In this document: piece by piece, positions 14,056-63,503 of the stretch
How positions within the stretch are numbered: the first letter of the stretch is position 1
Layout: every line of letters starts with the position of its first letter
IMG/VR virus record: IMGVR_UViG_3300047157_000073
Coordinates: 32,001-96,000 of that record
Source: a virus
Length of the DNA stretch: 64,000 nucleotides
Direction: 5' to 3' (one strand)
The notes under the pieces: generated by a model
What the model was told of the DNA's origin: nothing
The model's input: the letters and a program-made list of their open reading frames with translations, nothing else
Database searches by the model: none
Translations under genes and position numbers: made by a program

Positions 14056-14264
14056 CAAATTCAAAACATTTAATACATAGAAGTTTAGACATAGGAAGTG
14101 GACTAATCATTTCGATTATAATACAGTTAACCATATTTCCCCTTTATGGCATATACATTGAGGTGTGGGCAATGTTTCATCTTGCAATTATATTTACAAT
14201 CGTAGGTATCATAAGAAGTTATCTCTGGTCAAAATATGTATTTAAATATGGAGAATCTAAATGA
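14052..14264 (+). CDS. small membrane protein
   Basis: 70 aa with two hydrophobic segments. Confidence 0.6.
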   Translation: MTNSKHLIHRSLDIGSGLIISIIIQLTIFPLYGIYIEVWAMFHLAIIFTIVGIIRSYLWSKYVFKYGESK

Positions 14265-14278
14265 GAATCATTCTCATT
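14260..14278. promoter_or_regulatory. Fur-box-like 9-1-9 palindrome
   Basis: AATGAGAAT-C-ATTCTCATT, perfect inverted repeat. Confidence 0.7.
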
Positions 14279-14369
14279 AACTAGTGATTTTACTGATATC
14301 GTACAATATTTGCACAATCTTATTTTAAAATAATTCATTAATCCTATATAAATCAATAACATACAACCC

Positions 14370-14398
14370 TTGACAAAACCTGTTAGACCTGTCATACT
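14370..14398 (+). promoter_or_regulatory. sigma70-type early promoter
   Basis: TTGACA-17 bp-(TGn)CATACT. Confidence 0.8.
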
Positions 14399-14430
14399 GG
14401 CTGTGTAAATTAAATTGAGAGAGTAGATTT

Positions 14431-16881
14431 ATGAGAAGACAACAAAACCCCCAAAAAATCAAGTTAGAATCTGTAAAAGATAAATCGACTTTAGTCAAAT
14501 TATTGGCTGAGGAAGATGTTACTGTATCTTATCAGAAAGTTCCTACTGCTAGTTTCAATCCGAATACTAGAGAAGTAGTTCTACCTATATGGAAAGATAA
14601 ATCAGAATCAGTTATGGATATGATGTCACTTCATGAAGTGGGTCATGCTTTATACACACCATTATCTTTATTAGAAGATGGTCAAAATAAAAAAGTTAAA
14701 CATTCTTTTCTGAATGTATTAGAAGATGTTAGAATTGAAAAGATGATTCAAGATAAGTATCTTGGGTCAGTTAGAGTATTCAAAAAAGCATATACAGAAT
14801 TATTAGAAAAAGACTTTTTCAATATTAATGGAAAAGACTTATCAAAACTTAATCTGATTGACAGAATCAACATGCATTATAAGAATGTACCAGATGTACC
14901 TTTTGATAATGATGAATTAGAATGGGTTGATAAAGCCAATCAAACAAAAACATCTGATGATGTTTTAAATCTTGCAATCGAATTACAAGAGTGGATGAAA
15001 GCAAATCAAAAAGATATTGATTCAGATAGTTTATTTGAATCAGATATTACAATACCAGATATGGATAAATCAGAAGATGAATCTGATGGTGGAAATTCTG
15101 AATCAGATGATTCTAATAGTTCCGAAGATGGTGACCAAGAATCAGAAGATACTGATGGTGATGGCAATTCAATTCAGATTCAGATTCAGATGATGAAAAA
15201 GATTCAGATGATAAATCAGATGATGGTAAATCTTCTGAGAATGTAGAATCAGATGATAAACAAGAACAAAAAATTAAAGGTTTTTCTAAAGGTTCTGGTG
15301 GTGAAGATTTTGATGGTATCGAAGCAATGACTGATACTAACTATCAGAAAAAACAATATGATTCAGTTGACCAGAATGCTACTGAGATTGAATACTTAAA
15401 TATACCTAAAATAAATCTTAAAGAAGTAATTATAGATTATAAAGATGTTAATAAAGAATTATCAGAACATTATTCAAGTAAAACTCAAGGTAGAGAATAT
15501 AATCAAAAATATATGGACTTTATTAATAAAGATATTGTTAAATTTAAGAATGAACAGAAATCTACAATATCATATATGGTTAAAGAATTTGAAATGAAAA
15601 AGGCTGCTGACTTATATAAAAGAAGTACCGTGTCAAAAACAGGTAGTTTAAATATGGATAAGTTACATAGTTATTCTTACAATGAAGATATATTCTTAAA
15701 AATGAATGTTGAACCAGGTGCTACGAATCATGGACTAGTTATGTTCGTGGATTGGTCAGGTTCTATGCATGATAACTTTTACAATACAATTAAACAGACT
15801 TTAAATTTAGTTTGGTTTTGTGAGAGAGTAAATATTCCTTTTGAAGTTTATGGATTTACAAATGGTTATTCTAACAGAGATGATACTATCAAAAATACTA
15901 ACATTCAAAAAAGAAAACAAAATGATATCATAATTAATGAATTAAGATTATTAAACATGTTATCAAGTAGAGCAAGTAAAGATGAAATGAATGAGGGTAT
16001 GAAAAACATATGGGCAGTTGCTAATTATTATGGAATGCAATGTAGTCAAGTTAAATCTCATGATGAAGATGATAGATATATGTATCCAATTTATGTACAT
16101 ACTGATTATCAATTACACAGTACACCATTGAATCATTCAATAGTTGCTGCTATGGACTTGGTACCTAAATTCAAAAAAGATTATGGATTACAAAAAGTAC
16201 ATACTGTATTCTTAACAGATGGTTCTAGTAATAATATTGATTACAAGTATGAGTGGTCTACACAAGACATAAGACCATACTCTGAAAGAGTTGATAGAGT
16301 TACAGGTAAAGCTATTCCTTTACCAGATGATTATGAAGGTGGATTTCAACCATCAAGTATAAGAGGTTCTTACCATTCTACAGACAAGATAGTAGTTATT
16401 AAAGACCCAATCACTAATAAAAAATGGACTTCTAGTAAAGATGAAAAAAATTCATATAGTCATGATAGTGGATTTTCATATGGAGGTCAAACTAAAATTC
16501 TATTATCATTCTTAAAATCAAGAGTACCAGGTATGAGTGTCACAAACTTCTTTATTGCTGGTAGAAATAGAAAAGGCACAATTTCAAAATATGATATTGG
16601 ACAAATCTTTCGGATTGAATAGTTGGGATGATGAAGAACAAATTAAAAAGATTCAAAAAGAAATTCTAAAAAACAATGTTGCAGTTTGTACTACTCAGGC
16701 TTGGGATGAATTGTATGTCTTACCAGGTGGTCAAAGATTAGATGTATCAAATGATGATTTATCAGATATAAAACCAGGTGAGTTTAAGAAATCAGATTTG
16801 AAAAAGGCCTTTGGAAAAATGTCTTCAGGTAGAAAGAATTCTAGACCATTATTAAATAAGTTTATAGGAATGATTGCTTAA
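14431..16881 (+). CDS. HExxH-metallopeptidase-like + VWA (CobT-like) partner of the CobS/MoxR ATPase; two frameshifts
   Basis: HEVGHALYT, NVLEDVRIE, Asp/Ser linker, VDWSGSM MIDAS, STPL, FLTDG; ORFs 14431, 15327 and 16537 join. Confidence 0.85.
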
Positions 16882-16898
16882 TGAGAATCATTCTCAAT
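16880..16898. promoter_or_regulatory. Fur-box-like palindrome
   Basis: AATGAGAATCATTCTCAAT. Confidence 0.7.
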
Positions 16899-16940
16899 AA
16901 CTATTTTGCAAAGTCTAGTATATATAGGGGTGATAGGCCC

Positions 16941-16970
16941 TTGACAAAACCTGTCTTAACCTGTCATAAT
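16941..16970 (+). promoter_or_regulatory. sigma70-type early promoter for cobS
   Basis: TTGACA-18 bp-(TGn)CATAAT-AGCTACAT. Confidence 0.8.
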
Positions 16971-17009
16971 AGCTACATGATGAGAAAATTAATAAATGAG
17001 ATAATTCCA

Positions 17010-17028
17010 AATGAGAATCATTCTCAAT
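17010..17028. promoter_or_regulatory. Fur-box-like palindrome downstream of the cobS promoter
   Basis: AATGAGAATCATTCTCAAT. Confidence 0.7.
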
Positions 17029-17074
17029 TAGATTTCAAGTCAAAATTAAATAATGAGATATGTGAGGTATCAAT

Positions 17075-18301
17075 ATGAAAACACTAATAAACGAAATGTC
17101 ACCAAAACTAAAAGACTTTTTAATTCTTGTGAATGAAAAGTTAGGTGAAGGTTCAGAAGTTACTAGACAAGAGTTGAATGACATTGCTCTTGGTAATGGG
17201 TTACCAAAACCTAGAACCTTTATTAAATGGTTAACTAAAAATGGATTAAAAACAGGTCATGGTAAATATCAATTACCAACAGATGATACAGAATCATCTA
17301 GTCAACCTAATTTAGTTTCAGTACCGAAAGTTGCTGTGACTAATAATGAACCACAGGCAACTGTGAATCTAATGATGAATACAGAAACTCAAAATCTGAT
17401 TCCAAGCCCATTCGAAGGTTTTGTACCTTGGGGTCATTGTGCTACTATTAAAAAAGTGATTCAATCTAAAATGTTCTATCCTGTTTTTATCACAGGTCTA
17501 TCAGGTAATGGTAAGACATTGATGGTTGAGGAATTACATAGTAAATTGAAAAGAGAATTAATCAGAGTAAACATTACTATTGAAACTGATGAAGATGATT
17601 TACTCGGTGGATTCAGATTAATAGATGGTGAAACTAAGTTTGTACCAGGCCCTGTTATTCAGGCAATGGAAAGAGGTTGTACTTTACTTCTTGATGAGTG
17701 CGACTTGGGTAGTAACAAGTTACTTGCATTACAACCAGTTCTTGAAGGCAAGGGTGTCTTCCTTAAAAAGATTAACAAATGGGTTACACCAAAACCTGGT
17801 TTCAATGTGATTGCTACTGCAAACACTAAAGGTAAAGGTTCAGATGATGGTAGATTCGTTGGAACGAATATTCTTAATGAGGCGTTCCTTGAAAGATTTG
17901 CTGTTACAATCGAACAACCATATCCTAGTTCAAAAGTTGAAAAGAAAATCATACTTGGTTCTATGGAAAAGTATAATAAGATAGATGAGAAGTTTGCTGA
18001 GAATCTAACTGTTTGGGCAGAGGTTATCAGAAAGACTTTTTATGATGGTGGAGTTGATGAGATTATATCTACTAGAAGACTTGACCACATAGTTAAAGCA
18101 TTCTCAATCTTCAATGACAAGATGAAATCAATCGAGTTATGTGTATCAAGATTTGATGATGATACAAAGGAATCATTCATGGATTTATACACTAAAATAG
18201 ATGCTGGAGAGGATGTACAGGGTATATCTGATTCAGATGAAGACTTAGATGACCCTGTTGATGAAACTGTTAATGAAGACGGAGGAGCTGTAAACTACTA
18301 A
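17075..18301 (+). CDS. cobS: CobS/MoxR-type AAA+ ATPase
   Basis: GLSGNGKT, ETDEDDLLGG, LLLDE, ATANTKGKG, NEAFLERF, ISTRRL. Confidence 0.92.
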   Translation: MKTLINEMSPKLKDFLILVNEKLGEGSEVTRQELNDIALGNGLPKPRTFIKWLTKNGLKTGHGKYQLPTDDTESSSQPNLVSVPKVAVTNNEPQATVNLMMNTETQNLIPSPFEGFVPWGHCATIKKVIQSKMFYPVFITGLSGNGKTLMVEELHSKLKRELIRVNITIETDEDDLLGGFRLIDGETKFVPGPVIQAMERGCTLLLDECDLGSNKLLALQPVLEGKGVFLKKINKWVTPKPGFNVIATANTKGKGSDDGRFVGTNILNEAFLERFAVTIEQPYPSSKVEKKIILGSMEKYNKIDEKFAENLTVWAEVIRKTFYDGGVDEIISTRRLDHIVKAFSIFNDKMKSIELCVSRFDDDTKESFMDLYTKIDAGEDVQGISDSDEDLDDPVDETVNEDGGAVNY

Positions 18302-19707: not shown

Positions 19708-20694
19708 ATGAAAATACTAGGTGATGATGATATTGGTAAAGGAGGTATTGATGTACTCAATACTGAAACTGGTGAATCTAAAACAGTAAGAAAAAGAGAA
19801 ACCGACAAACCTTTTACAATAGATGACTACAATAAAGTCTTAGAAGACGCACAAAAACAGCAGGAAAATATTATGAGTGAAGAAACACAACAAGTGAAAA
19901 GAGCAGACATGATAAATGCTCAAAACAAAGCATCAGAAGAACAACAAATAGATACAGGTGAAGAAGTTCCAAAAAACCCTGGCGGTATTGAAATTGCAAT
20001 GCGACCAAAAACTGCTGTTAATATAATGAGATGTCAATTTCCAAATGAAGTCACAACAGAAATAAATGAACATATAGAAAAAGTTATTATTCCAAATAAT
20101 GTAGACCATTCAAAAGGTTTAGTTGGACAGATATCACAACACGAAAGGTCAGCACAATTAACTTTTCCACATGAAGGCGATGAAGTTGGTGAAATGTTTA
20201 GTGGTGTATTACAAAGACTAGCAAAAGAATTTGTAAATAAGACAGTAGGAATGGAATGTGAAACCTCTATGGAATCAATGTGGACAGTACATAGTTATAG
20301 TGGTGATTACAATCCTGTACATGACCATGGCACAAGAACACCAATGGGTGTATCATGTATTATGTATTTACAAGTTCCTAGATGTATTGCAACCTTAGGA
20401 AACCCATCAGAAAATTTTGATGGTCTAAATGAATCATCAGGTGCAGTAGATGGTTTTACATATTTAACTTGGGGTACTAATGGTATGCGTGATGTTAATA
20501 TGTTAAGACCTATTACAGAAGAATATGTTAAACCAGAAGTTGGTACATTGATTATGTTTCCTAGTTGGTTAAGACATGGAGTTATGCCTTTCTTTGGTAA
20601 AGAAGATGATGAGAGAAGAACATTCTCAGCAAACATTAATATTACTTTAAAAGAAAAACTAACTGGTGACCATTATAGGAAAGATAGAACATGA
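19708..20694 (+). CDS. putative 2OG-Fe(II) oxygenase (TIGR02466-like) with N-terminal extension
   Basis: WTVHSYSGDYNPVHDH, FPSWLRHGV, ERRTFSAN. Confidence 0.8.
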   Translation: MKILGDDDIGKGGIDVLNTETGESKTVRKRETDKPFTIDDYNKVLEDAQKQQENIMSEETQQVKRADMINAQNKASEEQQIDTGEEVPKNPGGIEIAMRPKTAVNIMRCQFPNEVTTEINEHIEKVIIPNNVDHSKGLVGQISQHERSAQLTFPHEGDEVGEMFSGVLQRLAKEFVNKTVGMECETSMESMWTVHSYSGDYNPVHDHGTRTPMGVSCIMYLQVPRCIATLGNPSENFDGLNESSGAVDGFTYLTWGTNGMRDVNMLRPITEEYVKPEVGTLIMFPSWLRHGVMPFFGKEDDERRTFSANINITLKEKLTGDHYRKDRT

Positions 20695-21458
20695 GTTTAA
20701 AAAATCTTTCAGATTCTTTAGGTAAAAAACAAAAACCTAAAAAAGGTAAATCTTTTGATACACAAGCACAAATAAAAACTATACCATCATATAAATTGAT
20801 GGCAGTACAGTTCCCAGATTTTTTTATTGATGATATTAATAAACATATTGATGAAGTTATTATACCAGCAAAAGTATCTCATAAAGGTCAATTAGTAGGA
20901 CAGATTAATAAAAATGAAAAATCTGAACAATGGGCTTTTCCTTTAGATAGTGAAATGGGAAAAGATTTTAAAACTATTGTAGATAGATGTGCTACTAGTT
21001 TACTAAATGATAAACTTGGTTATCAGCGTGACAGTATTGCAGAGGCTTTTGAAGCATGGACTGTACACAGTTATGCTGGAGATTACAATCCTCTACATGC
21101 ACATGGGTGTGAAACACCTGCAGGACTATCTTGTATACTTTATTTAAAAGTACCAAAGTGTATTGAGGAAAAACCAAGAATACCTTTATTACATAATGCA
21201 GCTGGTGGTATTGATGGGTTTACAGGTTTAATCACATCAACAAATACTATTCATGATGTTTACAGATTAAAATTAGATGCACAAGAATATGTAAAACCTA
21301 AAAAAGGATTTATGATGATATTTCCTAATTGGTTGCAACATTGTGTAATGCCATTTTTCGGAGAAGGTGAACGAAGAACAATGTCTGCTAATTTTAATAT
21401 CAGAGATAGTAAAGAAACTGTTAAACAATTTCAATCACCAACATTACATAACGAATAA
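20691..21458 (+). CDS. putative 2OG-Fe(II) oxygenase, tandem paralogue
   Basis: WTVHSYAGDYNPLHAH, FPNWLQHCV, ERRTMSAN. Confidence 0.8.
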   Translation: MSLKNLSDSLGKKQKPKKGKSFDTQAQIKTIPSYKLMAVQFPDFFIDDINKHIDEVIIPAKVSHKGQLVGQINKNEKSEQWAFPLDSEMGKDFKTIVDRCATSLLNDKLGYQRDSIAEAFEAWTVHSYAGDYNPLHAHGCETPAGLSCILYLKVPKCIEEKPRIPLLHNAAGGIDGFTGLITSTNTIHDVYRLKLDAQEYVKPKKGFMMIFPNWLQHCVMPFFGEGERRTMSANFNIRDSKETVKQFQSPTLHNE

Positions 21459-22178: not shown

Positions 22179-23114
22179 ATGGAAACTTTTTTATGGGTTG
22201 AGAAACATCGCCCAAGCACAATCAATGATTGTATTTTACCAGAGAACTTAAAAAAGACTTTTAAGGAATTTGTAGAAGACAAACATATACCAAACTTAAT
22301 TTTATCAGGTGGGCCTGGTGTCGGTAAGACTACTGTTGCCAAAGCAATGCTTGATGAGATTGGTGCAACATCATTACTAATAAATGGTTCAGAAGAATCT
22401 GGTATTGATGTACTCAGAAATAAAATTAAAAACTTTGCCTCTACTGTATCACTTGAAGGTGGTCGTAAGTATGTCATACTTGATGAGGCAGATTATTTAA
22501 ATCCCCAATCAACACAACCAGCACTTCGTGGATTCATGGAAGAATTTCATAAGAATTGTGGATTCATTCTTACTTGTAATTATAAGAATAGATTAATTGA
22601 CCCTCTACATTCAAGATGTAGTGTAATTGATTTTATTATTGCAAAAGATGATAAACCAAAACTTGCAAAAGACTTTTTTGGTCGTGTTAAGAATATTCTA
22701 GAAACAGAAAATGTAAAATATGAACCTAGAGTTATAATGGAAGTATTAACTAAATATTTCCCAGATTGGCGTAGAACAATAAACGAATTACAAAGATACT
22801 CTACATCAGGTCAGATAGATGCTGGTATTCTTGTAAATATATCAGAGGTAAATATAAATGAACTTATTACCGCACTCAAGGCTCAGGAATTCACTAATGT
22901 ACGAAAGTGGATTGTACATAATCTTGATAATGACCCTGTCCGTATTTATCGCAGGATTTATGACAATTTGTATAACCATGCTACTGCTGGTACAATACCT
23001 CATGCAGTTCTTATCTTATCTAAGTACCAGTATCAGTCAGCTTTTGTGGCAGACCAAGAAATAAACTTGTTGGCTTGTCTAACAGAAATTATGGTTGATG
23101 TGAAATGGAAATAA
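22179..23114 (+). CDS. gp44: clamp loader large subunit gp44
   Basis: LWVEKHRP, GPGVGKTT, LDEADY, LHSRC, FPDWRR. Confidence 0.97.
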   Translation: METFLWVEKHRPSTINDCILPENLKKTFKEFVEDKHIPNLILSGGPGVGKTTVAKAMLDEIGATSLLINGSEESGIDVLRNKIKNFASTVSLEGGRKYVILDEADYLNPQSTQPALRGFMEEFHKNCGFILTCNYKNRLIDPLHSRCSVIDFIIAKDDKPKLAKDFFGRVKNILETENVKYEPRVIMEVLTKYFPDWRRTINELQRYSTSGQIDAGILVNISEVNINELITALKAQEFTNVRKWIVHNLDNDPVRIYRRIYDNLYNHATAGTIPHAVLILSKYQYQSAFVADQEINLLACLTEIMVDVKWK

Positions 23115-23830
23115 AAAATGTACAAGTAGTAAAACCTTTTGGGCCATTAATTTTAGTGGCACAATTACCAGAGGGGTTTATTAAAAAACTTAATGACATT
23201 GTTGATGTAATTAAAGATAAAAAAGACATGGGCTCTAGACTTGCTGGTGTAATTGAAACTGAAAGTGAAATACCACATTCTATGTTGGAAGAAAAAAAAT
23301 GTATGGATGTTTTTCATGCACTATGTAGAAGTTACATAGAACAAGCTTATTTAAATTCTCATCAACAAGATTTATTTAATGCAATGGATATTAAAACTCA
23401 AATGCAATCTATATGGTCTGTATCACAATATGAGAATGAATATAATCCACAACACAATCATTCACATTGTCAAATAAGTTCTGTATTATATTTAAAAATA
23501 CCATCTATGAAACCTAGAAATATACCTAACAAACCAAAAGAAAAAGATGGCCAAATAGAATTTACTTTTTGTCAAACTGATAGTGTCTTTACAGTAGGTT
23601 CTTTTGTGACTAAACCAAAACCAGGCATGTGTTTATTATTTCCAAATACTTTATATCATCAAGTGTATCCATTTCAAGGTTCAGGTGAAAGAAGAAGTAT
23701 TGCATTTAACATGACATACAAAGGATTTAAAAAAGATAGTGGAATACAAATTGCTGGTGATAGTGTGAATTTATATAATGAAACAAACCATGCAGACACA
23801 TTACCATGGCGGAGATTAGATAATGTATGA
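23105..23830 (+). CDS. putative 2OG-Fe(II) oxygenase (TIGR02466-like)
   Basis: YNPQHNH, SSVLYLK, FPNTLYHQVYPF, ERRSIAFN. Confidence 0.8.
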   Translation: MEIKNVQVVKPFGPLILVAQLPEGFIKKLNDIVDVIKDKKDMGSRLAGVIETESEIPHSMLEEKKCMDVFHALCRSYIEQAYLNSHQQDLFNAMDIKTQMQSIWSVSQYENEYNPQHNHSHCQISSVLYLKIPSMKPRNIPNKPKEKDGQIEFTFCQTDSVFTVGSFVTKPKPGMCLLFPNTLYHQVYPFQGSGERRSIAFNMTYKGFKKDSGIQIAGDSVNLYNETNHADTLPWRRLDNV

Positions 23831-24215
23831 GTTAAAAGAATATTTAAAAGCAATTAATACTTCCAAAGAAAAACTTATGGATAGTGAAGATGAGCAATGG
23901 GAAAAGAAATATCCACCCTACATTGTAAATAAATGTCTTGCTCCATTTCAAGATACTATATTTCTAGTCAATGAAATGAACATGAATCATCAGACAGATA
24001 AGAAATTACAGTTTGACTTTTTACTAAATACTCTAAGAACAAGGCAAAGGTATACACCTTGGCTAAAGGCGAAGAAAGAAAAACATTTAGAATGTGTTAA
24101 AGAGTATTATGGATATGGTAATGAAAAAGCAAAATCAGCTCTCAGTATACTAAATGATGAACAAATAAAAACTATTATGAATAGTTTAAATAAAGGCGGT
24201 AAACATGGAAAATAA
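23823..24215 (+). CDS. gp62: clamp loader small subunit gp62
   Basis: YPPYIVNKCL, NEMN, QFDFLLN, VKEYYGY. Confidence 0.93.
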   Translation: MYELKEYLKAINTSKEKLMDSEDEQWEKKYPPYIVNKCLAPFQDTIFLVNEMNMNHQTDKKLQFDFLLNTLRTRQRYTPWLKAKKEKHLECVKEYYGYGNEKAKSALSILNDEQIKTIMNSLNKGGKHGK

Positions 24216-24616
24216 TATACAATGGAAGCAGGAGCAGATGTTTGAAGTTCTTTTAAAAGAACCAGATGACTTCCTAAAGATTAGAGAAACTTTATCTCGC
24301 ATAGGAGTTGCTTCTAGAAAAGAAAGGAAACTATATCAGTCTTGCCATATACTTCATAAACAAGGTAAGTATTACATAGTACACTTTAAAGAATTATTTG
24401 CACTTGATGGTAAGGATACAAACTCTATCAGAAAATGATATTGCTAGAAGAAATACAATAGTTAAACTTCTAAGTGATTGGGGTTTAGTTGCAATGAAAG
24501 GTACACCAGAACCGATTGCACCATTAAGTCAAATTAAAATTATTTCATTCAAAGAAAAAGATGAGTGGATGTTAGAAACTAAATATAACATAGGAAAAAA
24601 GAAAGAGGTAGAGTAG
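24205..24616 (+). CDS. regA: translational repressor RegA (frameshift near 24420)
   Basis: DDFLKIRETLSRIG, LYQSCHILHKQGKYYIVHFKELF, RRNTIVKLLSDWGL. Confidence 0.95.
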
Positions 24617-25026
24617 TGGCATATTCAGATAAAGTTTTAGACCATTATGAGAATCCTAGAAATGTGGGAACACTTGATAAGGATGATTCATCAGTTGGTA
24701 CAGGTATGGTCGGAGCACCTGCTTGTGGCGATGTAATGAAACTTCAAATCAAAGTAAATGATGATGGTATCATAGAAGATGCTAAATTTAAAACTTATGG
24801 ATGTGGTTCAGCAATCGCATCATCAAGTCTATTAACCGAATGGGTTAAAGGACAAAGTGTAGATGAAGCTTTAAAAATTAAAAATAGTGACATCGCAGAA
24901 GAACTTGCACTACCACCTGTAAAAATTCATTGTTCAGTCTTGGCAGAAGATGCTATCAAAGCTGCACTTGCAGACTATAAAGGAAAACAAGAATCAATAG
25001 GTAAATGGCAACCCAACTCAGAGTAA
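24616..25026 (+). CDS. iscU: Fe-S cluster scaffold IscU
   Basis: YSDKVLDHYENPRNVG, GAPACGDVM, GCGSAIAS, LPPVKIHC. Confidence 0.96.
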   Translation: MAYSDKVLDHYENPRNVGTLDKDDSSVGTGMVGAPACGDVMKLQIKVNDDGIIEDAKFKTYGCGSAIASSSLLTEWVKGQSVDEALKIKNSDIAEELALPPVKIHCSVLAEDAIKAALADYKGKQESIGKWQPNSE

Positions 25027-32361: not shown

Positions 32362-33380
32362 ATGAATGACTTTTTAAAAGATGTTATCAAAGAAACGGGT
32401 AACGAATATGCAGGAATAGTTTCAGATGGTGTAGAGGCTGGAGATGTAGAGAACTTTATAGATACAGGTTCTCATATATTTAATGGATTAATCTCTGGTT
32501 CACTCTATGGTGGACTTCCACAAAATAAGATTACTGCTCTGGCAGGAGAAAGTGCAACAGGTAAAACTTTCTTTCTCATGGGTATGGTTAAAAACTTTCT
32601 AGACCAAAATCCAAACTCTGGTGTTGTATACTTTGAATCAGAAAGTGCAATCACAAAACAGATGGTTGTTGATAGAGGTATAGATGCAAATAGAATGGTG
32701 ATAATGCCAGTAACAACTGTACAAGAGTTTAGACATCAAGCATTAAAAGTATTAGATAGATACATGCAACAAGATGTAGATATCGAAGACCACTCTTTAT
32801 ATGTTTAGATTCACTTGGTATGTTATCAACTACAAAAGAAGTAGAAGATACAGAGGCAGGAAAAGAAACTAGAGATATGTCAAGAGCACAAATACTCAAA
32901 GCTGCATTTAGAGTTTTAACTTTAAAACTTGGAAAAGCAAAAGTACCAATGGTTGTAACCAATCATACATATGATGTAATTGGTTCAATGTTCCCAACTA
33001 AAGAAATGGGTGGTGGTAGTGGATTGAAGTATGCTGCTTCAAGTATCATATATCTTTCAAAGAAAAAATTTAAAGATGGTACAGAAGTAATTGGTAATAT
33101 CATTCATTGTAAGAATCATAAGTCAAGATTGACTATGGAAAATAAAATGGTTGATGTTTTACTAACTTATGACAAAGGACTTGATAAGTATTATGGACTA
33201 CTTGACTTGGCAGTGGCACATGGAATATTTAAACAAGTATCCACTCGTATTGAATTACCAGATGGTACTAAACAATATGCTAAAACAATTAACAATGACC
33301 CAGAAAAATATTTCACAAAAGAGGTTATGGAAAAATTAGAAGAAGCTGCATTAAAAGAATTTAAATATGGAAACGAATGA
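32362..33380 (+). CDS. uvsX: RecA-like recombinase UvsX (frameshift near 32785)
   Basis: [31 protein letters not shown]. Confidence 0.95.
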
Positions 33381-33922
33381 TAGGTTTAATTAAAACATAT
33401 GATAATACACTTGATACTCAATCTTGTAATAATTTAATAGATAAGTTTGAACAATTTAAAAATCAACATGAATCATTTGATGATAGAGGAATAGTCTTTA
33501 CACAACTGAATATGGCAAAGGCATCTCAGATTTGGAAAACAGAAATAGAAAAATATACAGAAATTTTTCAAAATAGTTTTACAACTTATTTGACAGACTT
33601 AGAAATTTCACCACAACAAATGCCAAGTAAATATATGTGGGAACCTATTCGAATAAAAAGATATTTACCGAATGACCATGATGAATTTAAACCACATGTA
33701 GATGTAAATTCAAAACAAACATCTACAAGATTTTTAGTTTTCTTTATATATCTTTCAGATAATGAAGAAGGCAAAACTACTTTTCCACAATTAGATAGTT
33801 ATGCTGAATGTAAGAAAGGTAGTTTATTAATGTTTCCACCTATGTGGCCATGGCTACATGCTGGAACAAAACCAATAAAGGAAGCAAAATATATAATGCA
33901 GACTTATTTACACTATGTCTAA
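33377..33922 (+). CDS. 2OG-Fe(II) oxygenase
   Basis: [27 protein letters not shown]. Confidence 0.85.
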
Positions 33923-34214
33923 TATTAAAGAATCATATGTTTTTGTAGAAAGTAAAGCACAAGACCAAACTTGTATTGGTATCAAGGGTGGAAAGTTTGC
34001 TGGTGTAATTTATAAGTATGGAAAAGTTTCACTTGGTGAAGAAACAGAAGATGGTAATATGCCATTTAAATTTGAATTTGATATCATAGATAATAATTCA
34101 GTGCCGAGAGAAAATTTTGGAGATGATTGGTCAAATTTAATAGGTGATATTTTAATAGATATAATTGAGGAACAATATGCAGAATCAGACAATAGAAAGG
34201 ACAACTCTAACTAA
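33915..34214 (+). CDS. conserved hypothetical protein at the gp40-like position
   Basis: GVIYKYGKV, F.FDI, IGDILIDII; immediately upstream of gp41. Confidence 0.7.
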   Translation: MSNIKESYVFVESKAQDQTCIGIKGGKFAGVIYKYGKVSLGEETEDGNMPFKFEFDIIDNNSVPRENFGDDWSNLIGDILIDIIEEQYAESDNRKDNSN

Positions 34215-35654
34215 TCTTCTAAACAACGAAGAATATTCTAGAAAGGTTTTACCATTTATAAAACCAGAATACTTTGATGTTAAAGAAGAAAGAATAATCT
34301 TTGATGAGATACAAAAGTTTGTAGACAAGTATAATAAGATACCAACTCAAACATCATTAGAAATAGAAGTTAGTACAAGGAAAGATTTAAATGATGTAGA
34401 ACATAAAAAGATTGTTGAGATAATTAAAACTCTCAAAAAAGAAACTATAGATTTTGATTGGTTAGTAGATACAACAGAAAAGTTTGTCAAAGATAAAGCA
34501 ATCTATAATGCAATCGTAGAAGGTGTTGGTATTATAGATGGTAAGTCTAAAGATAAAACACCAGAAGCAATCCCACACATTTTAACAGAGGCACTTGCAG
34601 TATCTTTTGACAATTCTGTTGGACATGATTATCTAGAAGATTCTGAATCAAGATTTGATTACTATCATCATAAAGAAGAAAGGATACCATTTGATTTAGA
34701 ATTCTTTAACAAGATTACTAAAGGTGGACTTCCACCAAAGACTTTAAATATTGCATTGGCAGGAACAGGTGTAGGTAAATCATTGTTCATGTGTCATCAA
34801 GCTGCAAACTGTTTATCACAAGGAAAGAATGTTTTATATATTTCATTAGAAATGGCAGAAGAAAGAATTGCAGAAAGAATAGATGCCAATATGATGAATA
34901 TCAGTATACCAGATTTACATGACTTACCTAAGAAAATGTTTGATGATAAGATTACAAGATTACAAAAGAAAGCAAAAGGTAAATTAATTATCAAAGAGTA
35001 TCCAACTGCATCCGCACATAGTGGTCACTTTCAGAGGACTACTGAAAGAACTTGCAATTAAGAAATCTTTCAAACCAGATATTATCTTTATTGATTATTT
35101 AAACATCTGTGCATCAAGTAGATTTAAGGCAGGCAGTTCTATGAACTCTTATACAATCATTAAATCTATTGCAGAAGAACTCAGAGGACTTGCAGTAGAA
35201 ACAAATGTACCTATTATGTCTGCAACACAAACGACAAGAAGTGGATTCTCTAATACAGATGTTGGACTAGAAGATACATCAGAAAGTTTTGGATTACCTG
35301 CAACGGCTGACTTAATGTTTGCATTGATATCTACAGATGAACTAGAAGAACTGAATCAAATCTGTGTCAAACAATTAAAGAACAGATACAATGACCCTAC
35401 AATGAATAAGAGATTCATCATTGGAATAGATAGAAACAAAATGAAACTATTTGATGTAGAACTCAAAGCACAAGATGAACTTGTAGACCATGGTCAATAT
35501 GTTACACCTATTGCAGATAAAGGACAAGGATTCGGTAAAGGACACAGGCCCTAATCTATCTGGTAGACCAGATGATGTAAATCCATTCTCAAAAACAGGT
35601 CAAGAACAATCCAAAGAAGACAAATATGACAAATTCTCTAAGTTAAAAGTTTGA
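34177..35654 (+). CDS. gp41: replicative helicase gp41 (frameshifts near 35030 and 35545)
   Basis: AGTGVGKS, SLEMAE, IKEYPT, IDYLNI, SATQTTR, ESFGLPATAD, QLKNRY. Confidence 0.96.
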
Positions 35655-57599: not shown

Positions 57600-58082
57600 A
57601 TGATAACACTAGAATTTAAAAAGATAGTGTTAGTATTCTACGCATTATGTATTTCCTTGATTAATACTAGCACAGCAAGTGAGTTAACTCACAAGTTTGG
57701 TAATCCTGCTTTTAGTAAAGAGGGTTATTCTCAACATGCATTATCAATAGAACAATTACAATACACTAGAGAAAATGATAGAATTAAAGATGAGAAGTCT
57801 GCAATATCACAAGCAGAAAGAGATGAGAAGAATAAAACAATTAATAAATTTATTGCCAATGTAGAAAGTCGTATCTATGCTAACTTATCTAAACAGTTAG
57901 TAGACAATATGTTTGGTACAAGTTGTACATCTAATTGTGCAACAAGTGGAACAGCAGAAGTAGAAGGTTCTCAAATATATTGGGTAAAAGATTCATCAAC
58001 AGATGTTATAACATTGACAATAACAGACACAACAGGAACAGTATCAACAATGTCTGTACCAGTTGGTGATTTTATTTTTTAG
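57600..58082 (+). CDS. csgF: curli assembly component CsgF-like
   Basis: Signal peptide then SELTHKFGNPAFS; F..N.ESRIYA.LS; C-terminal TLTITD..G. Confidence 0.8.
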   Translation: MITLEFKKIVLVFYALCISLINTSTASELTHKFGNPAFSKEGYSQHALSIEQLQYTRENDRIKDEKSAISQAERDEKNKTINKFIANVESRIYANLSKQLVDNMFGTSCTSNCATSGTAEVEGSQIYWVKDSSTDVITLTITDTTGTVSTMSVPVGDFIF

Positions 58083-58090
58083 GATAGATT

Positions 58091-58906
58091 ATGTCTTGGA
58101 CTTATATATTAATATTTTTAATGGGAATGTGCCTGTCAGGTTGTTCAACAACAATGGGAAACTATGTTGAATATTCTGATAAACCTTTTACACAAGTTAC
58201 CCCAACAGGTGACTTGTTAAGGAATGTACCTGATTTAGGGCAAGAGAAAATAACTATTGCCATTTATGATTTTCCTGATAGAACAGGACAGAGAAAACCA
58301 AGTACTAATTTTTCTCAATTAAGTACGGCAGTTACACAAGGGCCTGAAGTGTATTTAATACAGGCACTTAAAATGGTAAGTGAGGGAGATTGGTTTACAG
58401 TAGTAGAGAGAAAAGGATTAAGTAGTCTAGTCAAAGAAAGACAATTGGTTAGGTCTACAAGAGAATTATATGATGGTGAAAAATCTGCAAACACAGTATT
58501 GAAACCACTGATATTTGCAGGTCTTATTATAGAGGGTGGAGTTGTTAGTTATGATTCAAATATGATAAGTGGTGGTGAGGGTGCAAGGGTATTTGGTATT
58601 GGAGCTTCCAAACAATATCGAACAGACCAAGTAACTATTAGTATGAGAATAATTGCAGTGCAAACAGGAGAAGTATTGATGACAATATCAGCAAGTAAAA
58701 CTATTGCAAGTCATCAAGCAGGTGCAGATGTATTTAGATTCTTTGATTTAAGGACTAAAGCATTAGAAGTAGAATCTGGCGCAGCTGTCAATGAACCGAC
58801 AGACTATGCCATTCGTTCTGCTATAGAGTATGGTGTTTTAAAAATGGTTGAGAAAGGTGAGAAACTAGGGTATTGGAAGTTTAAGAAATGGAGAGTAGAA
58901 GAATGA
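58091..58906 (+). CDS. csgG: curli secretion pore CsgG-like lipoprotein
   Basis: LSGC lipobox; AIYDFPDRTGQRK, STAVTQG, WF.VVER.GL..L..ERQ, IIEGGVVSYD. Confidence 0.93.
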   Translation: MSWTYILIFLMGMCLSGCSTTMGNYVEYSDKPFTQVTPTGDLLRNVPDLGQEKITIAIYDFPDRTGQRKPSTNFSQLSTAVTQGPEVYLIQALKMVSEGDWFTVVERKGLSSLVKERQLVRSTRELYDGEKSANTVLKPLIFAGLIIEGGVVSYDSNMISGGEGARVFGIGASKQYRTDQVTISMRIIAVQTGEVLMTISASKTIASHQAGADVFRFFDLRTKALEVESGAAVNEPTDYAIRSAIEYGVLKMVEKGEKLGYWKFKKWRVEE

Positions 58907-59586
58907 AAAAAATAATATCAATAATGATGTTGATGATTATTTCGTTATCGGTTTATGCTAATGATATCTACATAAACCAATCTGGTGCTACACTAGATTT
59001 AGATATCACACAAGATGGCCAGAATAACACAGTAGGAAGTTCTAGTACAGCTTCTAGTGTGATTGGTGCGACAACAAACTTGGCAATTACACAAGTAGGT
59101 GATAATAATGTCATGACTTTTGATGTTAATGGTGCAACCTATACAGGTACATATTCTGTAACAGGTAACTCAAACAACATAGACTTTAATTGTGATAGTG
59201 GTGGAAGTAATTCAAGTTGTGGTACTGCTACTGCATCTATCGTTTGGGTAGGTTCATCTAATGATATTGACATAGACATAGGTGAAACATCATCTGCTAC
59301 AGGTGCAACAGTATCTATTACTGGTGCAAGTGGTAGTGATAGTAATACAGTCTTAGGTACAATAGATGGTAATTCAGCAATACTAACATTGTCAATTAAT
59401 GGAGATACAAATAACTTCTTAGTTGATATAGATGGTAATGGAGATAGTGTTGGACATACTTACATACACACTCATACAGGTTCTATCGCAGATGTAGATA
59501 TAACTCAAAGTGGTATCTATGATAACATGATAACATTAACAACATCTGGTGATAATCACGATATAGATATAATACAACGAGATTAA
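58903..59586 (+). CDS. secreted curlin-like beta-solenoid protein
   Basis: Signal peptide; repeats of the type I.ITQ.G.NN about every 22-24 aa. Confidence 0.7.
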   Translation: MKKIISIMMLMIISLSVYANDIYINQSGATLDLDITQDGQNNTVGSSSTASSVIGATTNLAITQVGDNNVMTFDVNGATYTGTYSVTGNSNNIDFNCDSGGSNSSCGTATASIVWVGSSNDIDIDIGETSSATGATVSITGASGSDSNTVLGTIDGNSAILTLSINGDTNNFLVDIDGNGDSVGHTYIHTHTGSIADVDITQSGIYDNMITLTTSGDNHDIDIIQRD

Positions 59587-59587
59587 A

Positions 59588-60682
59588 ATGAAAAAGTTTT
59601 TTATTATGATTTTGTTGTTTAGCACTAATGCCTTCAGTGCATCTATTGGTGATGTAATATTACAAGAAGGCAATGGTGTTGTAGAGAGAAAAGAGGGTGA
59701 TGAGTTTGAAAGTAAGAAAGACTTAGACATTTTTTCTTATGACACAGTTAGAACAGGCAAAGGTAAAACTGCCATTGAGTTTGTTGATGATACTAGAGTA
59801 GATGTAACAGAACATTCTAAACTAGTAATTGATGAATTTGTTTATGACCCAAATACAAAAACAGGTGCCTTATCTCTAAAGGCATCTTTGGGTACAGTAA
59901 GATATGCATCTGGTCAGATTGCAAAAAACTCAAAACAAAATGTAAAGATAAAAACACCAACAGCAACAATCGGTGTTCGTGGAACAGACTTTACAATGAC
60001 TATAGATGAAACAGGTAGTTCTACAATTATACTATTACCATCATGTGATACAAATGGTAATTGTTATGTAGGAGAAATTGATGTAACATCAGATGCTGGA
60101 CAAGTTATCATGAATCAAGCATTTCAAGCCACAGTTGTTGAAACAGTTGCAAGTAATCCTATGAAACCTGTCATTCTAGATTTAGATGAAAAACTAATTG
60201 GTAATTTATTAATTATATCTAAACCAAAAGAAATACAAGAACAACAAAACAAAGAAGACTATGTAAAAATTGCCAATGCATTAGAGATTGACTTTTTAGA
60301 ATTTGATGATTTAGAAATAGATTATCTAGAAGAAGAAACAGAGAATTGGGCAACAGGATTAGATATAGATTTTTTAGAACAAAACTTCTTAGTAAACATT
60401 CTAGACCAAATCAATGCTGAGTTGGCAAAGGCAATGAGAAGTGAATTTGATAAAGGTCAAGATGGTATAAGATTAGGTAAAGACCCAGAAACAGGTATTA
60501 CAGTATTAGATGAAGACCCCGATTGGGTGTGGAGTAGAGAGGATGCTGCTGGTAATTATATTGAATTAAGACTTAATAAAGAATATGGTTATGTTCTAAA
60601 TATAACACAAGGTGATTATGAAATTATTGATTACGAATTAGGGGGAGTAGAAAATGCAATTACAATTAATCAAATTCAGTAG
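59588..60682 (+). CDS. secreted FecR-domain protein
   Basis: Signal peptide; D.VRTG.G...I.F.DDT.V, L..G.VR..SG, KTPTATIGVRGTDF. Confidence 0.88.
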   Translation: MKKFFIMILLFSTNAFSASIGDVILQEGNGVVERKEGDEFESKKDLDIFSYDTVRTGKGKTAIEFVDDTRVDVTEHSKLVIDEFVYDPNTKTGALSLKASLGTVRYASGQIAKNSKQNVKIKTPTATIGVRGTDFTMTIDETGSSTIILLPSCDTNGNCYVGEIDVTSDAGQVIMNQAFQATVVETVASNPMKPVILDLDEKLIGNLLIISKPKEIQEQQNKEDYVKIANALEIDFLEFDDLEIDYLEEETENWATGLDIDFLEQNFLVNILDQINAELAKAMRSEFDKGQDGIRLGKDPETGITVLDEDPDWVWSREDAAGNYIELRLNKEYGYVLNITQGDYEIIDYELGGVENAITINQIQ

Positions 60683-60995
60683 TATATTATTATTACTACT
60701 AAGTTTTTCAGTATATGCAAATGATGTAAACTTAACAGTTATCACATCAGAGGGTGGTACTTTTGATGTACTACAAGATGGTGAAGATAATGACATTGAT
60801 TTTGACATACAAAGTATGGATGGTTTTGTTATTAATCTAGACCAGATTGGTGATAATAATGCCATTGATATAGATGTTGATGGTAGGACTAGTAATGGTT
60901 CTTCAATGACTATTAACCAAAGTGGTAATAACAAAAGTTATTCAGGTAGTTTTTGGTGTGGTGGTGCATATTGTTCAATGACAGTTACTCAATGA
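60654..60995 (+). CDS. short secreted curlin-like protein
   Basis: Signal peptide ending VYAND as in 58903; QDGEDN, QIGDNN, QSGNN repeats. Confidence 0.65.
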   Translation: MQLQLIKFSSILLLLLSFSVYANDVNLTVITSEGGTFDVLQDGEDNDIDFDIQSMDGFVINLDQIGDNNAIDIDVDGRTSNGSSMTINQSGNNKSYSGSFWCGGAYCSMTVTQ

Positions 60996-62841
60996 AAAAA
61001 TTTATAACTCATTGGACATTCGCATTTGTAACTTTAGTCGTTCATTAACATTCTATAGGTTTACAAGAACCATATGTCAAAGAAATATTAAAGTTAAAAT
61101 CATTTGACATTCTCATACAACAAGAAGAAAAAGAATTATCAAAAGACATTGGTATAGTTACAATAGATGAAAAGTCTATTGAGAAGTATGGACAATGGCC
61201 ATGGAAAAGAGATGTAATTGCAGAAGTCATATCTAATTTAAGACAATCAGGTGCTGGTGTAATATTATGATACCTATACTATTTTCAGAAGAAGATAGAT
61301 TAGGTGGTGATGATATACTATCACAAACATTGATAGATAATGGAGTTGTAATTGCACAAGTTGGTACATCTCAAATCAATAAAAACTCTGTTCCAAGAGG
61401 AGTTGCAAAAATAGGAAATCCATTACCATATCTTTTTGAATGGGATGGTATGTTAGGCCCAATCCCAATGCTAGGTCAAAATGCAAATGGAGTTGGTGTA
61501 ATTAATACTGCACCAGAAATAGATGGTGTTGTAAGAAGAATACCATTGATAATGAGAATAGGACAAGATACTTATCCTACAATGGCAGTAGAAGTCATTA
61601 GAGTTGCAACAGGTAATCCAAGTTATCAAGTCAAGGCAGGTGATGGCGGAGTTCAAGCAATAAGAGTACCAGGTTTTCCTATTATTAATACAGACCCAAA
61701 TGCTAGAATCTGGTTGCATTGGAATAAAGACTTTTGAAACTATATCAGCTTCAGAAAATGACTTTTCAAAATTTAAGGTCGTACTGTAATTATAGGAATG
61801 ACTGCTGAAGGTCTAGGTGGAATTATTGCAACACCAGTCGGTGAACAATATGATTATATGTTATCGGCATCTACATTACAAACTATGATAGATGGTAAAC
61901 AAATTAATCGTTATGATGTAAGTTCATTTCTAGAATTAGTTTTATCTTTTGTATTAGGTATTGTAGTTATACTGATTGCAAGATTCACACCTTATTGGTT
62001 TGTTGGTTTAAGTTTACTATCACTTTATGGAATAAGTGTCTATGGTTCTTATTATCTGTTTAACAACATTTAATATTATCAGATGTCAGTTGGATAATTA
62101 TTGTAATTACCATAGTTGGTATGCATAGTATATTTAATAGATTTATTTTAGAGTTTAGATTAAAACAACAAATAAGAAAACAATTTGAAACATATCTAGA
62201 CCCAAGACAAGTTGCATAGTTACAGAAAGACCCAAGTAAATTAAAACTAGGTGGTGATAGAAAAGAGATGAGTTTTCTGTTTATGGACATTGTAGGATTT
62301 ACACCAATATCAGAATACTATAAAAACAAAGATGACCCAGAGGGATTAGTTGAAGTTATCAATGACTATCTAAATCGTATGACTAAGATTGTTTTAGAGA
62401 ATGGTGGAACAGTTGATAAGTACATGGGTGATTGTATTATGGCATTTTGGAATGCACCACTTGATTGTGAAGACCATGCAGAGATGGCTGTCAAGACTGC
62501 TATAGAATGTGCAGATAGAAACAGAAAGACTAAAACAAGAATTCAAAGAAAGAGGACTACCAGATATCAATATAGGTTCTGGTGTCAATACAGGAACATG
62601 TATAGTTGGTAATATGGGTAGTGATACTAGATTCGATTATTCAGTCATTGGAGATGCGGTAAACTTGGCCGCAAGATTAGAGGCAGCAACAAGAAATTAC
62701 AAAGAAGAAAATGGTGGTATTGTATCTACCCTCTATTCTTCCTATACTATGGAAAAACTTAAAACTATCAAATCTGTAGAAGTTGATAAAATCAAAGTCA
62801 AAGGAAAAGAAGAATTAATCACTATCTACAAACCTAAATGA
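60992..62841 (+). CDS. CHASE2-domain class III adenylate cyclase (several frameshifts and one in-frame stop)
   Basis: IDEKSIEKYGQWPWKR, DGVVRRIPL, TM helices, FMDIVGFT, DKYMGDCIMAFWNAP, GNMGS..RFDYSVIGDAVNLAARLE. Confidence 0.88.
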
Positions 62842-62872
62842 GAAATTCTCATATAAGGAAACTCATATACTC

Positions 62873-62891
62873 TATGAGAATGATTCTCATT
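62873..62891. promoter_or_regulatory. Fur-box-like palindrome
   Basis: TATGAGAATGATTCTCATT; a shortened variant ATGAGAA-A-TTCTCAT lies at 62838-62852. Confidence 0.65.
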
Positions 62892-62921
62892 TGACCCCCT
62901 AAAATAAGGCCAAATTAGGCC

Positions 62922-62950
62922 TTGACAATACTTGTTCCACCTGTCATAAT
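62922..62950 (+). promoter_or_regulatory. sigma70-type early promoter
   Basis: TTGACA-17 bp-(TGn)CATAAT-AGCTACAT; 3' part identical to the 16941 promoter. Confidence 0.8.
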
Positions 62951-62981
62951 AGCTACATAATCATAGAAAGAGAGAGGAAAT

Positions 62982-63480
62982 ATGAGAGAAAAAAATCTAA
63001 ATTTAAAACCAAGTGAAAATTTATATGTGACTACTTACGAAGACGGAGAAGTAGAATATATACCCTGTACACCAGATGAAATGAAAAAGAAGAAAAAAGA
63101 TTAAGAAATCTTGGAGTGAAATTCACTACCGAAATAAGAAATGACTTAATAAAATATATAGATTACAAGAACAGAGGAATATAGAGAGAAAAATATGAGA
63201 TACACAAGATTAACAGAAAAAGACAGAGAAATGATTGATTATGTCTTTTATAAGATAGTACAAAACCAGAATATGAAAATATAGAGTGTGGATACCCTTG
63301 GTATGATATTTCAGTATTTTCATGGAATGACTTAAAAATTCAGATAGATTCTGATTTATTGATAAGAAACTATACTGAATATCAAATTTTCACCCTTTGG
63401 CCGTGATAATTGACTTATCATTGATTCAAGGATGGTGAATGAGAACATGTAGATGGCCAAATGAATAACGATTATTCAAG
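62982..63480 (+). other. probable short early genes broken by sequence errors
   Basis: ATGs at 62982 and 63196 after GAGAGA-type RBS; frames close early. Confidence 0.35.
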
Positions 63481-63484
63481 ACTA

Positions 63485-63503
63485 AATGAGAATCATTCTC
63501 ATT
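63485..63503. promoter_or_regulatory. Fur-box-like 9-1-9 palindrome
   Basis: AATGAGAATCATTCTCATT, perfect, identical to 14260. Confidence 0.7.

Follow-up and report, generated by a model that had tools for sequence, protein, structure and literature searches.

Why does a phage carry, beside several of its early promoters, copies of a palindrome that reads like the operator of the bacterial iron regulator Fur? The question is raised by a 64,000-nucleotide stretch of viral DNA (the window), bases 32001-96000 of a 123,703-base linear record, IMGVR_UViG_3300047157_000073 (G000 below), with an estimated completeness of 71%. An earlier note, made from the letters of the window, had described a 19-base-pair (bp) palindrome as a Fur box marking a subset of early promoters of a lytic phage. 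The answer favored here, with a probability of roughly 0.58, is that the palindromes are host Fur operators which a single narrow clade of marine T4-like phages has gained.

Palindromes and early promoters in the window

The palindrome, AATGAGAATsATTCTCATT, is present in five copies in the window and seven in the 123.7-kilobase contig. A search with AATGAGAATNATTCTCATT that allowed up to two mismatches returned exact matches at 14260 and 63485 and single-mismatch matches at 16880, 17010 and 62873, the very places given by the earlier note, against 0.03 matches expected; five were reached in 0 of 100 shuffles. All five places have the 15-bp core TGAGAATNATTCTCA without a change, and the window holds no further match to it at up to two mismatches. 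Over the whole contig, seven exact cores were counted and none of a reversed control pattern. The two extra copies, also exact, stand outside the window at G000 117194 (box 6) and 122947 (box 7), each before a TTGACA promoter. The shortened copy reported near 62838 is likewise present, at 62837-62853 (AATGAGAA-ATTCTCATA), with two central bases missing (box 4a). The palindromes are not a product of chance. In form, a 7-1-7 core, TGAnAATnATTnTCA, exact in seven copies, is enclosed in a 19-bp 9-1-9 inverted repeat, which fits the 9-1-9 / 7-1-7 single-dimer model. According to the available text of PMC2189734, the 7-1-7 core of Baichoo and Helmann is nested within the 9-1-9 model, which describes the site of one Fur dimer. 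The boxes, the promoters next to them and the two large genes concerned are as follows (nt, nucleotides; ORF, open reading frame; G002 and G004 are related phage records treated below).

14260-14278, no strand: box 1, Fur-type (AATGAGAATCATTCTCATT); overlaps the TGA of ORF 14052-14264 and ends 91 nt before the -35 element
14370-14398, + strand: early sigma-70-type promoter of the 'peptidase' gene, TTGACA-17-CATACT, TG-extended; also in G004
14431-16881, + strand: 'peptidase' gene (phrog_459), in three pieces in the window
16880-16898, no strand: box 2, Fur-type (AATGAGAATCATTCTCAAT); overlaps the TAA of 'peptidase' and ends 42 nt before the cobS -35 element
16941-16970, + strand: early promoter of cobS, TTGACA-18-CATAAT, TG-extended
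17010-17028, no strand: box 3, Fur-type; in the cobS leader at about +34 to +52, a roadblock position
17075-18301, + strand: cobS-like AAA+ ATPase gene (PF07728, phrog_249), from the family scan
62837-62853, no strand: box 4a, decayed, two bases short; overlaps the TGA of ORF 62509-62841
62873-62891, no strand: box 4b, Fur-type (TATGAGAATGATTCTCATT); ends 30 nt before the -35 element
62922-62950, + strand: early promoter of a small-ORF cassette, TTGACA-17-CATAAT; a different cassette here in G002
63485-63503, no strand: box 5, Fur-type (AATGAGAATCATTCTCATT); ends 19 nt before the -35 element
63523-63552, + strand: early promoter before ORF 63584-63832, TTGACA-18-TAAGAT
G000 117224 and 123043, + strand: promoters outside the window, following boxes 6 and 7

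Five of the boxes touch or overlap a stop codon, which for boxes 1, 2, 4a and 6 is that of the preceding ORF; at the stop codon of box 5 no upstream ORF was called. An ORF at 16881-17078, whose ATG lies inside box 2 and which spans the cobS promoter, was rejected as a gene because a 17-nt indel in G004 breaks its frame. All four box-linked promoters of the window (14370, 16941, 62922 and 63523) have a TG before the -10 element. From the end of the box to the -35 element the distance is 91, 42, 30 and 19 nt in the window, and 11 and 77 nt outside it (boxes 6 and 7). The copy at 17010, unlike the six upstream boxes, is downstream of the 16941 promoter in the cobS leader, a position that the earlier note did not remark on.

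Other promoters are free of boxes. As the earlier note had it for gp55, gp43, gp61 and 19708, none was found at 10656 (before gp55), at the TTGACA at 26674 (before the DNA polymerase), at 52444 (before the primase) or at 19666 (before 19708). A CTTGACA promoter is present in 5 of 5 box-bearing gaps and in about 13-16 of the 74 gaps of at least 40 nt (hypergeometric p about 1e-4 to 3e-4, on crude underlying gene calls). The boxes are thus tied to a subset of sigma-70-type early promoters, as the earlier note observed.

The early promoters resemble one another beyond their hexamers. They share cCTTGACAAnAcyTGTnnnAcCTGTcATAATrGCTAC, with a conserved spacer and a TG-extended -10 element, at 4276, 10656, 14369, 16940, 19666, 52444, 62921 and 63522 of the window and at six more places in G000. 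This extended likeness suggests extra contacts or the recent spread of one promoter type.

The palindrome as a bacterial operator

When one genome per prokaryote species was scanned, the exact 19-mer turned up at no fewer than 121 bacterial loci, where about 9 are expected by chance (an estimate for uniform base composition). The nearest outward-reading ORFs on both sides were scanned with Pfam at the 80 loci with full flanks; 77 of these had an ORF, giving 123 ORFs. Among the matches listed, a metal-homeostasis family was met in a flanking ORF at 39 of the 80 loci, in 31 of them a specific metal family (Plug/TonB receptor, FecR, FTR1, FeoA/B, ferritin, HemS/ChuX, Peripla_BP_2, Iron_transport, ZnuA, ZIP or FUR) and in 8 a generic SBP_bac_6/8 binding protein of a type that serves ferric-iron ABC transporters; two further loci had AhpC and one an ECF sigma factor. 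Again among the matches listed, the 19-mer stands before iron genes in Proteobacteria and before znuA/zur in Actinomycetota. In SAR86 it lies 12-14 nt before an FTR1 permease ORF and also before TonB-dependent receptor genes, in Pelagibacteraceae before a ferric-type binding-protein gene, and in Methylophilaceae before feoB and a porin gene. Judged by the genes that it precedes, the 19-mer is a working Fur-family operator across many phyla, and the naming of the palindrome as a Fur box is upheld by the placement of the exact 19-mer directly before genes of the Fur-regulon type in these three groups among others.

The cyanobacterial Zur box (RegPrecise via PMC9337993) has AATGA in common with the palindrome and a different half-site spacing, and was rejected as a separate motif. 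A 363-nt sea-water contig carries two boxes 67 nt apart, the spacing found in a SAR86 genome (G010); this is probably not phage DNA but a double operator of the host type, present in that water.

Which protein would bind the boxes in the phage? The FUR domain (PF01475) was not detected in the six frames of the 123.7-kilobase contig and was detected in 14 of 14 control genomes. The phage-encoded Fur-family regulator, which the earlier note had offered as an alternative, is accordingly without a candidate in a contig that is 71% complete. The economical reading would be host Fur. A rival is that the sites are operators of another protein, either an early DNA-binding protein of the phage, possibly encoded in the missing 29% of the genome, or a host paralogue of the Fur family (Zur, Mur or PerR, for example, whose boxes are almost the same in some phyla). 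It draws on the 19-mer (with an A or T centre) before znuA/zur in Actinomarina and other Actinomycetota, on its place before ahpC in Gracilibacteria, on the incompleteness of the contig and on a single weak winged-helix ORF (HTH_39, E = 6e-5, G000 97384-97698), beside which a Pfam scan of 104 ORFs gave no extra regulator; the scans with family libraries did not extend to the ORFs of G000 1-32000. Set against it are the absence of the FUR domain from the contig and the position of the box before iron, not zinc, genes in the proteobacterial groups that relatives of the phage infect. Moreover, a non-Fur phage protein that matched the host Fur consensus exactly would be an extra assumption. On balance this alternative appears very unlikely.

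The flavor of the core differs between candidate host groups. Among exact 7-1-7 sites (TGAnAATnATTnTCA), the G/G core of the phage accounts for 43 of 70 in the SAR86 family, where 26 of 30 genomes have at least one (24 of 28 after removal of two genomes picked through the motif). The corresponding figures are 5 of 66 sites and 5 of 31 genomes in Pelagibacteraceae, in which TGATAAT is dominant, and 8 of 61 sites and 5 of 31 genomes in Methylophilaceae. The flavor of the boxes hints weakly at a SAR86-like host among the three groups compared. Because hybrid sites occur, the Fur proteins of all three groups probably accept both flavors.

Two other routes gave no link to a host. T4-like contigs were recovered through the capsid protein in 3 of 266 SAR86-order genomes, at up to 78% protein and 69-72% DNA identity, and they lead to no host conclusion because they are no closer than cultured phages of SAR11 and OM43. 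The phage also encodes a ribosomal protein S21 (PF01165, G000 96050-96382), for which 29-40% identity to the S21 of SAR86, SAR11 and Methylophilaceae genomes was obtained, with matches in 5 of 10 candidate genomes of four groups; this was uninformative.

The phage and its relatives

By PHROG and Pfam scans, the phage is a T4-like myophage. The window has a G+C content of 32% and all its genes on the + strand. The T4-like set includes prohead protease, scaffold, major capsid protein, gp55, gp45, gp44/62 and gp43, together with gp41, gp61, UvsW, UvsX, UvsY, RegA and ribonucleotide reductase; cobS, Hsp20, many 2OG-Fe(II) oxygenases and a CsgF/CsgG 'curli-like' operon are additional. The capsid protein shares 75% identity with its counterparts in Pelagibacter phage Mosig and Methylophilales phage Melnitz, and 71.5% with the one in Pelagibacter phage HTVC008M. 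The stretch 13900-17400 was found, whole or in part, in 20 public sea-water runs, with at least half of the sampled words in 16 of them, over 16 studies; the record itself may derive from one of these runs. The clade is uncultured, of the 'pelagimyophage' type and widespread in marine water.

Six loci from a motif scan of IMG/VR are syntenic with the contig, and the records G001-G005 align with most of its length. These relatives (G001-G005 and locus L286) show 72-94% nucleotide identity, and a box is retained in them at every homologous place, with turnover at 4a and 4b. Boxes 1, 2 and 3 are found in G004 and L286, boxes 4a, 4b and 5 in G001, 4a and 5 in G002, box 6 in G003 and box 7 in G005. 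Of the 154 specified core bases in 11 homologous site pairs, 153 agree, compared with 1018 of 1418 aligned positions (72%) in the 60-nt flanks on either side (Fisher p = 1e-19). Coding ends and promoters are part of the flanks, which makes the comparison a conservative one. Judged from these alignments, the boxes are under purifying selection. The sole core change, TGAGAAT...ATTCTCA to ...ATTATCA at box 3 of G004 (TGAGAATCATTATCA), still leaves a 7-1-7 Fur core. Throughout, 20 copies in seven contigs keep one sequence with no compensatory changes in the stem. Only the centre flips between C and G, which is the same palindromic site on the opposite strand.

The surroundings of the boxes are less constant. 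Indels separate box from promoter by an altered distance at box 2 (17 nt, G004) and at box 6 (about 60 nt), and the first of these shows that the spacer is neither coding nor fixed. At the 62922 promoter, 4a is decayed and 4b intact in G000, both are full-length in G001, and only 4a, also full-length, is found in G002, so that at least one intact box precedes the promoter in each genome. In G002 another small-ORF cassette stands between units 4 and 5, while units 1-3 lie in a conserved block. Contigs from RNA libraries show natural variants at eight bases on both sides of box 3 and none listed inside it.

A survey of 80 IMG/VR loci with a CobS relative, of which 9 were dropped for having almost no upstream DNA and 71 kept, delimits the clade. 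Boxes were found at two loci, L286 and L287 (the G004 contig), with three boxes each and a CobS that is 82% and 81% identical, respectively. At the other 69 (up to 68% identity) no match to the generic TGAnAATnATTnTCA, even with one mismatch allowed, was present within 450 nt upstream. In all three genomes that have boxes there, the cobS promoter sits between two of them. The upstream regions of 33 of the 71 loci were inspected in detail. The TTGACA lies at -143/-175 from the start of the cobS match in the box-bearing clade and at -55 to -102 in 20 box-less relatives, a longer leader that makes room for box 3. A search for an alternative palindrome at the box-less cobS promoters was fruitless, since 3 of 31 had an A/T-rich palindrome with 7-bp arms, all different and none recurrent. 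Because close relatives have the boxes while the 69 cobS loci and the cultured relatives do not, the distribution indicates that the boxes are a recent gain by one narrow clade, added to an older promoter. As for absence of the motif from homologous promoters in relatives, which the earlier note had named as evidence against its idea, the close relatives all have the motif, retained as just described, and the distant ones all lack it.

An IMG/VR-wide scan with a 16-mer gave at least 123 loci, six of which belong to this clade. The count of the other listed loci is about what 15 fixed bases would give by chance, and no enrichment across IMG/VR is claimed. The centre is C or G in 105 of the 123 loci among the matches listed, an excess that may come in part from coding 'MRIIL' starts. 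In HTVC008M, a single perfect related palindrome, TGAGTATCATACTCA, occurs at 89047-89061 (L010), inside 88343-89494, where the 'peptidase' fragment aligns and which is annotated as a peptidase; it may be due to chance.

Many core genes of the record are broken into two or three ORFs. The family scan located the following, all on the + strand.

14431-16881, + strand: 'peptidase'
8533-10021, + strand: UvsW helicase
12344-14055, + strand: gp46
24205-24616, + strand: RegA
32362-33380, + strand: UvsX
34165-35554, + strand: gp41

For 'peptidase', contigs from other public runs have one base inserted behind 15171 and one deleted at 16611, and with both indels applied the gene becomes a single ORF of 816 amino acids that ends at box 2. 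The split genes are probably indel errors of the record rather than real pseudogenes, and such assembly errors leave the boxes untouched.

Two further neighbors of the boxes were recorded. The CsgF/CsgG pair is followed by a FecR-domain protein and by a split protein with CHASE2 and adenylate/guanylate-cyclase domains (window 57600-62841), and this block terminates exactly at box 4a. A curli-like operon is typical of pelagimyophages, according to the available text of PMC7029224. Directly before box 7, a stretch of about 370 nt free of ORFs (G000 122570-122940) exceeds the neighboring DNA in G+C content and appears structured; Rfam gave no match up to E = 0.1, no transfer RNA was found in it, and its upstream part (to G000 122768) aligns with G005.

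Consequences, rival readings and known systems

Host Fur probably binds the boxes in vivo. During infection, metal-loaded Fur dimers of the host would occupy the sites at the upstream gene ends, 11-91 nt before the -35 element of six early promoters, and once inside the cobS leader, and their occupancy would make the output of the adjoining transcription units depend on the iron state of the cell. Three routes can be envisaged. Fur on box 3 in the cobS leader, or on the boxes at stop codons, could stand in the way of RNA polymerase as a roadblock; at boxes 5 and 6, only 19 and 11 nt from the -35 element, it could disturb upstream promoter contacts; or it could activate from upstream, as upstream Fur sites are known at Fur-activated promoters in Neisseria. 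The units affected would be 'peptidase', cobS, three small-ORF cassettes and a TusA unit that perhaps includes rubrerythrin. Iron-dependent control of adjacent early units as the main consequence is put forward tentatively, at somewhat less than even odds, and titration of Fur in that role is considered unlikely. Local regulation is ranked above pure titration because position appears to matter, as indicated by the cobS bracket kept in three genomes and by the 62922 promoter, which in each genome keeps one box or more.

Titration could nevertheless be a secondary or alternative effect, with at least seven perfect sites per replicating genome drawing Fur from the few operators of the host. Taken to its full extent, this becomes a rival explanation in which the boxes are decoys. 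Hundreds of replicated sites would strip Fur from host operators, on the principle of the Fur titration assay, and the derepressed FTR1, TonB receptors, Feo and ferric ABC systems would feed the iron enzymes of the phage. The density of boxes speaks for it, with seven exact cores in 0.124 Mb of phage compared with 0-4 in bacterial genomes of 0.6-1.2 Mb, or about 30-60 times as many per length, as do the perfect consensus of all copies and their loose position relative to the promoter. The phage also has many genes for iron and Fe-S proteins, an unusually rich set. They comprise a NifU_N scaffold, an IscA-like Fe-S_biosyn protein, TusA, a DsrC-like protein, rubrerythrin, class I ribonucleotide reductase, a di-iron protein of the fatty-acid-desaturase/AlkB type and seven ORFs assigned to 2OG-Fe(II) oxygenase families, of which the seventh (6905-7423) has no direct oxygenase match and is placed through phrog_274 (DNA endonuclease V), a family also among the matches of the 2OG oxygenase-family ORF 33377-33922. 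TusA, and perhaps rubrerythrin too, is downstream of box 6. The family scans gave these positions for iron and Fe-S ORFs.

24706-25023, + strand: iron/Fe-S ORF
7372-8570, + strand: iron/Fe-S ORF
19708-21458, + strand: iron/Fe-S ORF
23105-23830, + strand: iron/Fe-S ORF
33377-33922, + strand: iron/Fe-S ORF (2OG oxygenase family)
4554-5360, + strand: iron/Fe-S ORF
G000 104863-105186: iron/Fe-S ORF
G000 105327-105620: iron/Fe-S ORF
G000 117880-118095: iron/Fe-S ORF
G000 120052-120468: iron/Fe-S ORF

A decoy would not need to be sited at promoters, yet all five box-bearing gaps have one, and the cobS bracket and the box retention at 62922 look locus-specific. Furthermore, there are only seven sites, dispersed and not arranged in a dense tandem array. 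These points leave the decoy explanation improbable, yet still a serious rival.

Several observations weigh against host Fur operators that control the early units. Repressing Fur operators usually cover the -35 or -10 element, whereas none of the boxes overlaps either hexamer, which speaks against classical promoter occlusion. In place of the classical arrangement, with the operator over -35/-10 or the start site, six boxes lie 11-91 nt upstream and, among the boxes set against these elements, only box 3 (+34 to +52 in the cobS leader) is positioned to block transcription. The gaps of 11, 19, 30, 42, 77 and 91 nt are without helical phasing and shift by 17 and about 60 nt between relatives, a pattern hard to square with the exact geometry of an activator or repressor. 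Most of the genes downstream have no known function, and no iron-uptake gene is among them. The 29% or so of the genome missing from the contig leaves room for a phage-encoded binder, and the box matches the Fur sites of the bacteria sampled, from which the consensus of the actual host may differ. Mosig, Melnitz and HTVC008M, cultured relatives that infect SAR11 and OM43, are without the box set, having 1-2 background matches with 1-2 mismatches. Finally, a stem-loop at a gene end followed by an early promoter is the anatomy of the PeSLs of T4-type phages, as set out in the available text of PMC4122927, and the cassette between units 4 and 5 is swapped in G002, as would suit such an element.

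This last point introduces the rival that the palindrome is the stem-loop half of a PeSL-type unit of stem-loop plus early promoter, ending the upstream message and serving recombination for the shuffling of gene cassettes, with its likeness to a Fur box coincidental. The order of gene stop, palindrome, sigma-70 promoter, Shine-Dalgarno sequence and start is found at six places, with 11-91 nt between stem-loop and promoter, and units 4-7 lie among small ORFs. Adjoining indels and cassette replacement, a feature of PeSLs, are seen in the exchanged cassette of G002 and in the 4a/4b turnover. The pairing of a terminator with the promoter is not seen. As RNA, the palindrome would form a hairpin that has a 3-nt loop, lacks a U tract and reaches only -4.5 to -6.5 kcal/mol, and a terminator scan called nothing at any of the five window copies, while the phage's own terminator at 4224 has -18.5 kcal/mol and a U tract. 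These fold energies and the scan ruled out a terminator. Contigs of three RNA libraries extend across boxes 1-3, which speaks only weakly against termination, as DNA can occur in libraries of this kind.

Box 3, the one copy downstream of its promoter, runs counter to the PeSL order, and 8 of the 14 CTTGACA promoters with a plausible -10 element have no such stem-loop. PeSL stems vary in sequence, in the available text of PMC4122927, whereas those of the phage are invariant in 20 copies, and a chance identity of 18 out of 18 bases with an operator that precedes iron genes at at least 39 bacterial loci is very unlikely. A PeSL-type cassette with a coincidental Fur likeness is hence regarded as highly improbable, and acquired host Fur operators remain the preferred reading.

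A more specific proposal is that the clade, globally distributed and infecting streamlined heterotrophs, captured the host Fur operator as an iron sensor that ties chosen early genes to the iron state of the host, or as a decoy that makes the infected cell turn on iron uptake for the virus. To this the flavor of the boxes would add SAR86 rather than SAR11 as the host. The proposal is regarded as doubtful. If it were true, there would be a viral hand in the iron regulation of the iron-limited ocean, and a T4-like lineage would be assigned to the uncultured SAR86 by matching of regulatory motifs. Iron is limiting in large areas of the ocean, where many of the abundant streamlined heterotrophs die through their phages. 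Should such a phage read or override the iron regulator of its host, iron supply would specifically influence how infections end and how much iron infected cells require. The matching of operator flavor between phages and candidate hosts may also offer a signal for host prediction. A literature search over titles and abstract beginnings found no report on Fur boxes in the genome of a lytic phage, or at promoters of lytic marine phages in particular, and the words 'Fur' and 'iron' do not appear in the pelagimyophage paper PMC7029224 outside its supplements.

Three known systems invite comparison. With the PeSLs of T4-type phages, in so far as the available text of PMC4122927 describes them, the phage shares a repeated stem-loop at gene ends with a near-consensus sigma-70 early promoter, as well as the setting among small variable ORFs with a cassette exchanged in a relative. 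It differs from them in that its stem is AT-rich, weak and without a U tract, in that the sequence itself and not merely the structure is invariant, and in that the promoter distance varies, one copy is downstream and the sequence equals a host operator. The units of the phage may also serve as recombination points. Conversely, the question arises whether some of the 'stem-loops' in promoter cassettes of T4-type phages are in fact sites for host regulators. To the Fur boxes of proteobacterial iron-uptake genes the phage sequence is identical (AATGAGAATsATTCTCATT), whereas its boxes are clear of the -35 and -10 elements, 11-91 nt upstream or in a leader, and the genes downstream are early genes, none of them for iron uptake.

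The third comparison is with phages that already use regulators of their hosts. A Fur box is found at the stx1 promoter of Shiga-toxin prophages and a DtxR operator at tox of corynephage beta, and T4-like cyanophages carry PhoB and NtcA boxes. By analogy, the phage described here would likewise place the operator of a host nutrient regulator at its own promoters and let viral genes respond to the nutrient status of the cell. The stx1 and tox cases concern single accessory toxin genes of temperate phages, whereas at least seven boxes are linked here to early promoters of a virulent-type T4-like phage, and the PhoB and NtcA boxes of cyanophages belong to regulators of phosphate and nitrogen, not iron.

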